This document shows positions 2,366 through 37,873 of a stretch of 64,000 bases of DNA, piece by piece. Source of the DNA: a phage; sequence record PZ445436.1, one strand, 5' to 3'. Positions within the stretch are counted from its first letter, which is position 1. The number at the start of each line of letters is the position of its first letter. The notes under the pieces are model-generated. The model made no database searches and was not told the DNA's origin. It saw only the letters and a program-made list of their open reading frames with translations. Position numbers and translations under genes: made by a program.

Positions 2366-2380
2366 AACTTTGTGCAATCT

Positions 2381-2413
2381 TTGGAAAATAAAAAAGGACT
2401 CCCGAAGGAGTCC
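2381..2413 (-). terminator. rho-independent terminator
   Basis: GGACUCC-UUCG-GGAGUCC then UUUUUUAUUUU right after stop of the 30.9-like ORF. Confidence 0.7.
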
Positions 2414-2418
2414 TCAAC

Positions 2419-2595
2419 TTATGCTTTCTGCTTACCAAAACGAGAAGCATCATCTCGAAGAACCGCACGTGCTCGGCGCATGATCTTCTCAACAGTTTGA
2501 TTGATACGAGAGTTCGACCCACGCTTGTAGCCAGCGCGTTTAGAATCACCAACTTTCTTTTCAACTGCTTTCTTTGCTTTAACTTGTTTTGCCAT
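2419..2595 (-). CDS. small basic protein (T4 30.9-like by position)
   Basis: 58 aa from internal ATG 2593-2595 (MAKQVKAKKAVEKK...); terminator hairpin directly after stop; track ORF 2419..2637 has an unsupported 14-aa extension. Confidence 0.45.
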   Translation of the reverse strand: MAKQVKAKKAVEKKVGDSKRAGYKRGSNSRINQTVEKIMRRARAVLRDDASRFGKQKA

Positions 2596-2882
2596 TATAA
2601 ATTCTCTTTTAAATGAAAATGCAGGACTTATTGGCATTGCCTGCGCAAGCCCTCAAGGGGAACATAGGTTTTGAATATTTACCGACAGGATAACCATAAA
2701 CCCGTCATCATACCACCAAGACTTACACAGATAACACTTTTCTGACGCATGATAGTAACATTCAAGAGGTACACCATAAAACTGCCGGGGTCTTAAAACT
2801 ATAATGATTCGCAAATCATTAATCAGACAGTTCGATGGCTCCTCGTTTTAACTTCACACTAAGGCAGTGAATCTCCAATAAA

Positions 2883-3131
2883 TTACTTCAATGTTACCAC
2901 AAAGTGACGAACTGCTTTTCGTGCAGCAGAAGCCAAAGGCTTAGCATATTTAAGTTCATCTTTTTCCTGAAGCTCAGCAGCTAATGCAGTTTGAGCAGGA
3001 TTCAGATGTTTGAAATAACGCAGGATTTCAAGAGCTTCGGCTTCAACATCAATAGATGCGCCATAGTTTTCGTGACCATTATTCCATGCGTTTCGTTGCA
3101 GTTCAAGAGCGTGTTGTAATTGTTTAATCAT
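2883..3131 (-). CDS. rIII: rIII lysis-inhibition accessory protein
   Basis: 82 aa, T4 rIII length and position just downstream of gene 31; late promoter motif upstream. Confidence 0.8.
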   Translation of the reverse strand: MIKQLQHALELQRNAWNNGHENYGASIDVEAEALEILRYFKHLNPAQTALAAELQEKDELKYAKPLASAARKAVRHFVVTLK

Positions 3132-3270
3132 TTAAAAATTCTCGTTAGAGATTAAAACTCGGTAGTCACGTTCTTCTGAATTTCATCTTCTTTCGACAGA
3201 TCTCTCAGTTGTAGACTACCACATAGAATTGTTCGGTTAACTTATTATTCCGACACCCAATTCATATTAT

Positions 3271-3278: not shown

Positions 3279-3614
3279 TCACTTATAAAGACACGGAATA
3301 GCTTTATAGTGACAAGTAACGAATTTTTGTTTAATTTCTTTTGGCTGCTTAAGACCCAGAGCTACAAAAGGATGCGGAACATTTCGAATTTGACCAACTG
3401 GAAGAGAAGTCAAATCACCAACTTCGCAGAAACCTTCAGGAACATCAGGACCGACAGAGTGAACTACACACAGTTCAGGAACTTCACCTTGAACACGTTT
3501 ACCAATAATAAGTCCTGATTCTGTAACTTCTTCATCACCGGCTTGTGCAGGTTCAGAAACTAAAATAACATATTCACCGACAGCACGAATTGGTAGCTGT
3601 TGTACTTCAGACAT
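3279..3614 (-). CDS. 31: gp31 co-chaperonin (GroES analogue) for capsid protein folding
   Basis: 111 aa, sequence matches T4 gp31 as recalled; MotA-box middle promoter upstream. Confidence 0.9.
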
Positions 3615-14899: not shown

Positions 14900-15756
14900 A
14901 TTGCCATTTTCCCTTTAATTGCTGGATGCGATTCATAATTTTCAAGGATAAAATCTTTCGGTTTCATGTATTCAGTTAACCAGTAAAGCTGTGTTTCGGT
15001 GTCACAATTTTCAAACTCTATAGGCCAATCAATTTTAAGTTCACACAGTTCTTTAGGCTCACGACGTAAAATTTCTTTACATTGCTCAGTATGATTCATA
15101 TAGATGTGAGTATTACCACCAGAAAATATCAAATCTCCTGGGATAAGATTACACATCTTAGCCACAATATGCGTCAAGGCAGCGTACGAGGCAATGTTGA
15201 ACGGCAAACCCAAGAAAACATCTACACTTCTTTGGTACCATTGTAAATCAAGATAACCATTACGCACATTAAACTGATAGAACATATGACAGGGCGGTAA
15301 TGCCATTTGATTGATTTCAGCTGGATTCCATGCTGAAACGATTTGACGTCGATCAGTTGGTAATTTTTTAATACGATCAATAGTTTCAACTAATTGATCC
15401 ACACCACCGAAATCACGCCATTGTTTACCGTATATAGGACCAAGTTCACCACTATGATATCCTAGGTCTTTAGCTTGGTTTTCATAATTGTCATCCCAGA
15501 TAGTTTTACCTTGAATAAGACTACCGTGAGTAAGAAGACGTAAATCATTAACATTGGTAGAACCGGAAATAAACCATAAAAGCTCAGCAATGCATGCATT
15601 CCAGGCGAGCTTCTTAGTTGTTACTGCAGGAAAACCTTTAGTTAAATCCCAGCGTAATTTAGTACCGAACAAAGCAATTGTTCCTGTGCCCGTTCGGTCA
15701 TCGGTTTCATAGCCATTTTCAAAAATGTCTTTAATTAAATCTTGGTATTGTTTCAT
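14896..15756 (-). CDS. td: thymidylate synthase
   Basis: 286 aa continuous ORF; ThyA motifs (active-site PCH); no intron. Confidence 0.95.
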
Positions 15757-37308: not shown

Positions 37309-37526
37309 TATTTTACACCATTCCAAATTGTTTCAACCACAGATTTTAAACCATTTTGATGAATATCAATTCCGACTACTGTCATCAAATAGATTCCAAC
37401 TACAACTGAACCCAAGGCAAAAATCAGCATGAAAATGAATAAAGCCGGAAAAATATTATCGAAAAACCATTCAATAAATGTAAAAGCACTGCGTTTACGC
37501 TTCATATTTTCCTCACATAAATCCAA
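37308..37526 (-). CDS. small membrane protein
   Basis: 72-aa ORF with central TM helix. Confidence 0.5.
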   Translation of the reverse strand: MDLCEENMKRKRSAFTFIEWFFDNIFPALFIFMLIFALGSVVVGIYLMTVVGIDIHQNGLKSVVETIWNGVK

Positions 37527-37626
37527 AGTAAACGTTTAATACATCAATCATTAAAACGATTGGGAATATACTCAAAACTATTAGTATTATAACTACATTC
37601 CATATAGCTTTAACAATCTTTTTCAT
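37513..37626 (-). CDS. 37-aa membrane peptide
   Basis: GGAGGA SD then ATG 37624-37626; promoter at 37655-37684 lies inside the longer track ORF 37513..37761. Confidence 0.45.
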   Translation of the reverse strand: MKKIVKAIWNVVIILIVLSIFPIVLMIDVLNVYFGFM

Positions 37627-37654
37627 TTTCTGTTCCTCCGTAGTTGATAGGGTA

Positions 37655-37684
37655 ATAGTACCACGGAAGAACAGTCTTGTAAAC
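37655..37684 (-). promoter_or_regulatory. T4 early-type promoter
   Basis: GTTTAC, 18 nt, TACTAT; conserved downstream block CAACTATCAACTACGGAGGA. Confidence 0.6.
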
Positions 37685-37691
37685 AACTTTT

Positions 37692-37790
37692 TTAAAAATA
37701 TTCGTAATAAATGTGAATACCAACTACTACCGCTGAAACCTGTGCAACCCACCACGCACAAGCAATAAGTACAGAATTCAAAATTTTCAT
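37692..37790 (-). CDS. possible 32-aa membrane peptide
   Basis: GAGG SD; MKILNSVLIACAWWVAQVSAVVVGIHIYYEYF. Confidence 0.35.
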   Translation of the reverse strand: MKILNSVLIACAWWVAQVSAVVVGIHIYYEYF

Positions 37791-37873
37791 AATAACCTCA
37801 TCACAAAAGTAAATGTTAAACAAATTAATGGAATACTAATTAACCAAACAAAACACCACCATAATGAACTCAT
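37787..37873 (-). CDS. possible 28-aa hydrophobic peptide
   Basis: ATGA overlaps at both ends; MSSLWWCFVWLISIPLICLTFTFVMRLL. Confidence 0.3.
   Translation of the reverse strand: MSSLWWCFVWLISIPLICLTFTFVMRLL

Follow-up and report, generated by a model that had tools for sequence, protein, structure and literature searches.

Downstream of rIII, the lysis-inhibition gene of a T4-like phage, lies a stretch of DNA that no gene lays claim to. It sits in a window of 64,000 nucleotides (sequence record PZ445436.1; by the window we mean the whole stretch of DNA that was analysed), which comes from a Tequatrovirus myovirus genome. With the 900 bp around the spacer as query, 956 phage records match, most of them from Tequatrovirus and the best at 99.3% identity. 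The minus-strand genes run in the order gene 31 (3279-3614), rIII and gene 30.9, and the spacer, 2596-2882, is exactly the 287-bp interval between the last two: rIII ends at 2883 and 30.9 starts at 2595, both on the minus strand. T4 itself has a counterpart of 244 bp (NC_000866, 130,541-130,784). T4 is among the most closely studied of all phages, and the interval still carries no annotation in its reference genome. Comparison of the spacer with its relatives shows a conserved non-coding segment that is predicted to be structured in the gene-sense RNA, with covariation in the parts that we call domain A, M3 and M5.

Alignment to relatives gives a strongly positive result for conservation. The spacer turned up in 770 phage records, once per record, and a version of 120-416 bp is kept down to 70% RIII identity. 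Against five relatives (L012, L014, L017, L019 and L021) the spacer of the window is 88-92% identical in nucleotides; the corresponding figures are 82-85% for rIII, 62-67% for the third codon positions of rIII and about 70% for 30.9. When the comparison is given for L012-L021, the range for the third codon positions is 62-71%. Within Tequatrovirus the pattern is reversed, with flanks that are 99-100% identical on either side of a spacer that is 92-98% identical and has indels. Both patterns fit a functional sequence, parts of which would have been exchanged between lineages.

Domain A is a branched long hairpin whose minimum-free-energy fold (-23.1 kcal/mol, z = -3.28, none of 200 shuffled sequences as stable) is also the RNAalifold consensus of 21 distinct sequences. 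Alignment A3 combines domain A with the four-pair helix of a small hairpin, H1 (21 sequences, 29 pairs, 25 of them in domain A). Paired cells make up 99.2% of this alignment and six pairs have changed on both sides, five of them in domain A; none of 500 shuffles reaches these values, and in controls with slid partners the pairing falls to 30-61%. Two G·U pairs of domain A, at columns 46/117 and 52/111, are invariant and a third is common. On the opposite strand the invariant pairs would be C·A mismatches, which places the fold in the minus-strand, gene-sense RNA. At the tip of domain A is the A/T stem-loop that a first-pass annotation of the window had pointed out. It is real, with 8 bp and a loop of four nucleotides (TAATGATT-TGCG-AATCATTA in DNA letters), a loop that had been written one base too long. 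Two of its pairs are compensated in L070 and L021 (AU to UA or UG; UA to CG). H1 supplies helix 1 of A3, where its four pairs are paired in 100% of cells and one of them has gone from AU to GC in 7 of 17 sequences; as a fold it is thermodynamically weak (z = -0.97).

Further toward 30.9 is motif M3, which occurs once in the window and is found in nearly all relatives, at varying places within the spacer. The frame that relatives have in common reads UAUGAUG, stem, GUUNNNGGUUAUC, stem, GUWAAAU...AAACC, with at least three different stem sequences (GACGG/CUGUC, GUGGA/UCCAC and GUC-UA/UAGAC) built around the conserved loop. The exchange of partners can be read off alignment A5: pair 11-33 is UA in 12 sequences, AU in eight and GC in one, and pair 12-32 is CG in 13, GC in six and UA in two. 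The covariation score is 0.46 against 0.17 in shuffles (0 of 500), and the fold has a z of -2.6. The arrangement UGAUGA-stem-GUAAA calls a hammerhead ribozyme to mind, a reading that we rejected: the motif has UAUGAUG, not CUGAUGA, and GUWAAA, not GAAA, and there is no Rfam hammerhead match. A leader peptide starting at the AUGAUG of M3 was rejected as well; its length would be 10 aa in the window but 34 aa in T4, and in other relatives the frames differ. We disregarded a scan of the collection for M3, the pattern being too degenerate and its matches mostly due to chance.

M5 always lies directly upstream of the 30.9 ribosome-binding site. Its stem has been replaced whole (GCAGG/CCUGC, ACUGG/CCAGU, GCGGG/CCUGC) with the loop CRAUGYCAAUAAGW retained, and other lineages have unrelated hairpins in its position. 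The small hairpin M4 is kept in all lineages with small variants (CCCUUCGAGGG, CCUCUUAGAGG, CCCUAUGGGG) and offers limited support because its stem is short and mostly invariant. A cassette of about 45 nt upstream of M3 has its homologue in L023 and L011, in the loop region of the hairpin before 30.9, and between the two CAGA...UCUG corresponds to CAGC...GCUG, a compensated pair; the fold of the cassette is not significant alone (z = -1.2). Last in line, a pairing that covers the Shine-Dalgarno sequence of 30.9 is predicted in the minimum-free-energy folds of the window and its close relatives, weak and not significant alone, and an analogous pairing (UCUCCA/UGG-A-AGA) is predicted in Klebsiella-type relatives. 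Some other ideas about these hairpins came to nothing. Loop-loop complementarity among M3, M5 and H1, checked by eye, gave no convincing match. Two GGAG motifs were considered as sites for RegB and rejected, since neither fits the strong-site consensus GGAGRAYARAA (PMC3014915) and one lies inside a helix. An origin of replication, raised by the 'ori type 2 repeat' annotation of phage ATK47, is not credible, the repeat being a 10-bp motif on the 30.9 ribosome-binding site. The features are collected in Table 1.

Table 1. Features of the rIII-30.9 locus, in the direction of the minus strand, followed by copies of the 145-nt RNA in relatives
Feature	Position	Strand	Sequence and remarks
rIII, T4-type lysis-inhibition gene, upstream cistron	2883..3131	-	82 aa; 100% identical to T4 RIII by tblastn; named rIII in annotated relatives
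Hairpin H1	2854..2870	-	UCAC-UGCCUUAGU-GUGA; short stem, loop conserved as URCCWWAGU
Domain A	2766..2844	-	79-nt branched long hairpin; GAGG/CCUC, GCCAU/AUGGU, GAACUGUC/GGCAGUUU plus apical hairpin
Apical A/T stem-loop, tip of domain A	2802..2821	-	UAAUGAUU-UGCG-AAUCAUUA; helix 4 of A3, 8 pairs, 100% paired
Promoter-like site	2752..2780	-	TTTATG (2780-2775), 17 nt, TGT-TACTAT (2760-2752), extended -10; inferred start near 2743-2746
~45-nt cassette	2713..2757	-	Absent from T4 in alignments; holds hairpin CAGA-AAAGUGUUA-UCUG (2728-2744)
Motif M3	2667..2712 (stem-loop 2684-2706)	-	UAUGAUG, stem, GUUUAUGGUUAUC, stem, GUAAAUAUUCAAAACC
Small hairpin M4	2650..2660	-	CCCC-UUGA-GGG(G)
Hairpin M5	2621..2644	-	GCAGG-CAAUGCCAAUAAGU-CCUGC, then AUUUUCAUUU
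Tentative hairpin over the 30.9 Shine-Dalgarno sequence (AAGAG, 2604-2608)	2601..2620	-	AUUUUC-AUUUAAAA-GAGAAU, predicted
Gene 30.9, downstream cistron	2419..2595	-	58 aa, very basic, MAKQVKAKK...; PHROG 1427 (unknown function)
Strong intrinsic terminator closing the rIII-30.9 unit	2394..2415	-	9 pairs, loop UUCG, U-run
145-nt RNA, L005 (Escherichia phage Ge15)	1322-1478
145-nt RNA, L029 (Klebsiella phage KPV15 type)	~1863-2009
145-nt RNA, L085	695-842
145-nt RNA, L086	616-764

Could the spacer be what is left of a protein gene? The first-pass annotation had described the interval as lacking a convincing open reading frame (ORF), and on this it was right: the three ORFs inside (53 aa with a TTG start, 32 aa and 26 aa) have no Shine-Dalgarno sequence and are not conserved in relatives. 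Its further suggestion of a remnant of a lost gene does not survive the comparison. Our set, drawn from IMG/VR and metagenome contigs and from phage records with annotation, comprised 72 spacers, 57 of them unique. Across the 57, the longest ORF keeps neither its frame nor its start codon nor its length, even where the phages are 97-99% identical. Single-base indels and a 44-nt deletion separate the window from four of its close relatives, T4 among them, and the 53-aa ORF has no match in Pfam or PHROGs. Distant relatives, with the single exception of L073, retain a spacer of the length range given above, not an intact gene. The protein-coding reading was rejected because of the ORF comparison, the Pfam and PHROGs scans and the frameshifting indels, and on these grounds the spacer is not supported as a gene, neither a lost one nor a pseudogene.

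A decaying remnant and a functionless, neutrally drifting spacer can be weighed together, and we hold both to be very improbable, already largely refuted. Annotators have, it is true, placed ORFs here: a 68-aa coding sequence in OE5505, a 62-aa one together with an extended 30.9 in KMB23 (none in T4), and an old T4 database entry stretched 30.9 to 97 aa, right across M3-M5. Yet the frames, starts and lengths of spacer ORFs are not homologous among near-identical phages, and they match no family. T4 tolerates the 44-nt deletion, as a neutral sequence would; against neutrality, the spacer beats both flanking genes in cross-genus conservation and its substitutions keep the base pairing. As for L073 (metagenome contig ERZ794946 NODE-9), its rIII-30.9 interval measures 687 bp and has nothing of the structured spacer. 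In its place are a strong terminator, an ORF of 161 aa, unrelated and of unknown function, and, for 30.9, a canonical early promoter (TTTACA-N17-TATAAT).

Two more of the first-pass claims concern composition and rarity. The spacer was said to be atypically rich in G+C. This claim is weak and not significant: the spacer's G+C content of 0.387 compares with a window mean of 0.355 (standard deviation 0.035), and 20% of 287-nt windows equal or exceed it. The flanks are at 0.36-0.37, and the spacer is richer only in comparison with other ORF-poor gaps (0.27-0.34). It was also said to be the only sizeable stretch without an ORF, which is roughly so, most other gaps holding small ORFs with good ribosome-binding sites by our crude ORF filter. 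It is not strictly so. The 364 bp at 37506-37869 (G+C 0.30) have no ORF with a convincing ribosome-binding site either; this second gap holds a perfect early-promoter match at 37655-37683 on the minus strand and a weaker one, with two mismatches, at 37504-37532, also on the minus strand.

The weak early-promoter-like site that the first-pass annotation saw in the spacer is there, and its quality alone does not raise it above chance. It departs from the T4/PST consensus TTTACW-N17-TAYWAT at two positions, both in the -35 box (4 of 6 match); the TGn and the -10 box match. The window has 154 sites with up to two mismatches where shuffled sequence has 123 +/- 10, and a generic sigma-70 scan did not report 2752-2780. 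The -35 box sits within the 3' arm of domain A, directly downstream of a G+C-rich sequence. The cassette that T4 is missing begins with the -10 hexamer, its first 6 nt, and T4 has no -10 box.

Such a site might drive a separate gene for a small RNA. On this account an RNA of about 130 nt would start near the position given in Table 1, end at M5 and its U-rich tail (~2611-2620), carry M3-M5 and act in trans, for example by binding a protein via its conserved loops. We think this unlikely. The extended -10 (TGn plus TACTAT) is identical in form to that of the window's strong early promoters, such as ...GTGGTACTAT, and relatives have a better -35 sequence, TTTACG; against this, the -35 box of the window carries both mismatches in a class of sites barely more frequent than chance, a 6-nt insertion in other alleles breaks the promoter spacing, and T4 keeps M3-M5 despite lacking the -10 box. 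At the far end, the U-rich AUUUUCAUUU comes directly after M5, but M5 fails the criteria for an intrinsic terminator: its stem has 5 bp, its loop has 14 nt, and the U-tract is interrupted. The loops of M3 and M5 are conserved, as a trans-acting RNA would have it, but the best-supported structures, domain A and H1, lie upstream of the putative start. There is a precedent of sorts in a phage of the Grimontviridae, where a 145-nt RNA (described below) stands between a promoter-like site and a strong terminator; for the spacer RNA there is no Rfam family match. Our search of the window with Rfam 15 at a permissive E-value brought up a single match in the gap, to snR76, at 16.1 bits (gathering threshold 55) and E = 3.4, and neither tRNA nor transfer-messenger RNA was found in the window. 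The idea of a small RNA put forward in the first-pass annotation holds in substance, in that conservation and compensatory changes support a function at the level of RNA; a discrete small RNA it need not be, since an intercistronic part of a messenger fits at least as well.

The locus is modular. The comparisons show that spacers of different phages are different assortments of shared cassettes, each closed by its own helix, and that the cassettes recombine as units between T4-like phages. This accounts for the clean insertions and deletions that set close relatives apart here. The indels fall at cassette borders: the 44-nt deletion of T4, the 6-nt insertion, an insertion of 111-150 nt, the loss of domain A. 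The neighbouring spacer, between gene 31 and rIII, has a hairpin of its own in the window, GUAGUCUACAACUGAGAGAUCUGUCGAAAGAAGAUGAAAUUCAGAAGAACGUGACUAC on the minus strand, whose core (3167-3214) shares 85% identity across 48 nt with the pre-30.9 hairpin of the Klebsiella-type L029; the same module would then be in use in two neighbouring spacers. A short-word BLAST search of the 64-kb window with the spacer and the spacers of relatives found only the locus itself and this 48-nt match. A genome-wide repeat or mobile miniature element was rejected, the spacer and its motifs being single-copy in the window.

T4-type phages have shuffling devices that look somewhat like this. Promoter-early stem-loops (PeSLs) are cassettes that mediate modular shuffling (Arbiol et al. 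2010; Comeau et al. 2014, PMC4122927); in the T4/PST pair a stem-loop lies just upstream of TTTACW-N17-TAYWAT, and PeSLs are associated with indels between close relatives (PMC4122927). Like them, the spacer is intergenic in a T4-like genome, has a stem-loop followed by an early-promoter-like TTTAYN-N17-TAYWAT, and lies where close relatives show insertions, deletions and replacements, its modules apparently exchanged. One could hold, then, that it is a DNA cassette of the PeSL type whose main role is to serve as a recombination site for swapping neighbouring segments, with promoter and terminator roles secondary. We rate this as improbable. Indels cluster at the locus, with clean borders between cassettes, and within Tequatrovirus it is more diverged than its flanks, as one would expect of a recombination mosaic; a DNA recombination site, however, has no need of invariant G·U pairs, compensatory changes, or hairpins with conserved loops and covariation of the RNA type. 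PeSLs are short, they are dispersed in many copies through the variable regions of one genome, and their end is formed by the next gene's Shine-Dalgarno sequence and start codon. The spacer, in contrast, is single-copy, far longer (287 bp, six to seven hairpins) and has some 150 nt of conserved, structured sequence between its -10 box, which ends at 2752, and the 30.9 start codon. Its promoter part is weak, and missing in T4.

We place roughly even confidence in another reading, that the spacer is a cis-acting structured intercistronic RNA of the rIII-30.9 transcript. The frame of transcription bears on this. Early, middle and late promoters are reported to lie upstream of rIII and to serve it (PMC9409239). 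A terminator scan found none inside the spacer, only 2415-2394 and 2457-2441; the strong terminator just beyond 30.9 is found at the equal position in L020 and L023, and annotated in relatives too. These two relatives have an identical layout, with no detected terminator in the gap and a strong one right after 30.9. The early promoter for 30.8 (2364-2336) lies beyond the 30.9 terminator. In T4, none of about 60 mapped start sites of MotA-dependent middle promoters falls in 130,541-130,784; the nearest are P31 at 131,540 and P30.2 at 128,355 (PMC2988021). A supplement to a T4 differential RNA-sequencing preprint has no entry for the rIII-30.9 region.

With rIII and 30.9 presumably co-transcribed, transcription would enter from the promoters upstream of rIII, cross the spacer and end at the terminator after 30.9. 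The spacer RNA would be a chain of self-contained hairpin cassettes, H1, domain A, the ~45-nt cassette, M3, M4 and M5, the last running into the 30.9 ribosome-binding site, and the cassettes would affect rIII and 30.9 in cis. Domain A, coming right after the rIII stop codon, might serve the rIII segment as a 3' barrier or as a processing structure and so uncouple its stability from that of the remaining transcript. M5 and its U-rich tail, the tail pairing to the Shine-Dalgarno sequence, might damp read-through and translation of 30.9. Every functional step in this scheme, like the co-transcription, is something we infer. The conserved loops suggest recognition of some hairpins by more than their shape, with a protein or another RNA segment as the partner.

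Hairpins in intercistronic mRNA are known to give segmental stability or to attenuate read-through, for instance the REP (repetitive extragenic palindromic) elements in malEFG, and those in puf and pap. The likeness lies in stable hairpins right after the upstream stop codon, a co-oriented pair of genes and one strong closing terminator. The difference is that those systems need only a stable stem, whereas the spacer has conserved loops and shuffled cassettes. T4 offers a second parallel in genes e, soc and I-TevI, where hairpins sequester the ribosome-binding site on read-through transcripts and a late or middle promoter inside the hairpin gives a short transcript that can be translated. The 30.9 Shine-Dalgarno sequence is likewise predicted to pair with an upstream U/C-rich tract, in two sequence forms in two lineages; unlike those genes, there is no late or middle promoter within the spacer hairpin, and the pairing is weak (6 bp including a G·U).

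Several observations weigh against a cis-acting intercistronic RNA. The covariation counts come from related sequences, and shuffle controls overstate their significance. The spacer in its entirety is no more stable than shuffled sequence (z = -0.59), and M4, M5, H1 and the Shine-Dalgarno hairpin are thermodynamically not significant. Divergence within Tequatrovirus exceeds that of the flanks, and the high identity across genera could come in part from recent recombination and not from purifying selection. T4 does without one cassette, L011, L020 and L023 do without domain A, and L073 has the whole spacer replaced; therefore no single cassette is essential. A simple stabiliser role, finally, does not explain the conserved loop sequences.

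The conservation of the spacer beyond that of both neighbouring genes, together with its covarying hairpins, points to control at the post-transcriptional level around rIII. This gene acts in lysis timing, and effects of its product on RegB and S1 have been reported as well.

In 403 phage records the exact place of the window's ~45-nt cassette is taken by an element of 145 nt, present once per genome and mostly at more than 90% identity; among them are phages of Klebsiella, Escherichia, Enterobacter, Shigella, Yersinia, Serratia, Edwardsiella and Aeromonas. Across 21 distinct sequences it has 47 pairs in eight helices; pairing holds in 98.4% of cells, and in 26 pairs both partners have changed. 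The fold includes a four-helix junction, a hairpin with a GNRA tetraloop and, between two hairpin loops, a 6-bp kissing interaction that is paired in all sequences and covaries (CGAUGG/CCAUCG, CUAUGG/CCAUAG, UGAUGG/CCAUCA, CAAUGA/UCAUUG). Rfam 15 has no match to it, in relatives at gathering thresholds or in L029 also at a permissive E-value, and from these comparisons it looks like an undescribed RNA family. A covariance model, R1, built from 21 members, scores true members at 120-176 bits; its best match in the window, at 15382-15517, reaches 9.6 bits (E = 1.3), and the 145-nt RNA is absent there. The element shares its locus with the window's spacer, is flanked by H1, domain A and M3 and is likewise closed by its own covarying helix; it differs in its compact eight-helix fold with a kissing loop, to which nothing in the spacer of the window comes close in complexity. 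In T4 and in the window's phage the locus occurs naturally without this RNA. Together with phages of the Ge15 type these two make a natural series for experiments: T4 as the minimal form, the window's phage with one extra cassette, and the Ge15-type phages with the 145-nt RNA. The comparison further brings to notice a complex RNA, not catalogued before, that is carried by hundreds of therapeutic-type phages of Klebsiella, Escherichia and Enterobacter.

A bolder reading takes the spacer for a dedicated non-coding RNA locus of T4-like phages. The loops of M3, M5 and H1 would bind a phage or host protein, gp30.9 being a candidate, in an autoregulatory or decoy ribonucleoprotein. We consider it unlikely. 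Were it true, some 400 relatives would carry an RNA of riboswitch- or ribozyme-like complexity on the same scaffold, and the window's phage and T4 would have minimal versions.

The 145-nt RNA is not confined to T4-like phages. L085 (phage PKM.Lu.22.1, Grimontviridae, 76 kb, not T4-like) carries it just upstream of a sigma-factor-like gene, and the order over 664-899 is a promoter-like site (664-693), the 145-nt RNA, an H1-type hairpin (GGTGATTCGCTACCTTAAGTGCGGCT) and a strong terminator (880-899). The arrangement suggests horizontal spread and the layout of a free-standing RNA gene.

A few observations on 30.9 and its surroundings remain. Its product has no match in Pfam or PDB; the N-terminal MAKQ is kept in relatives. 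Over the end of the gene and its terminator (2380-2463, minus strand) there is a sub-threshold Rfam match to the Rhizobiales small RNA Atu_C8 (31.4 bits against a threshold of 50, E = 4e-4). We rejected membership, as the match is carried by the terminator hairpin and U-run, a terminator look-alike that lies outside the gap. Annotation of the locus in relatives is inconsistent, with invented ORFs in the spacer, a lengthened 30.9 (68, 72, 97 or 102 aa in GenBank records or protein P0018) and, in several records, the label '1,4-alpha-glucan branching enzyme', a glycogen branching enzyme, on 30.9 or on the spacer itself.

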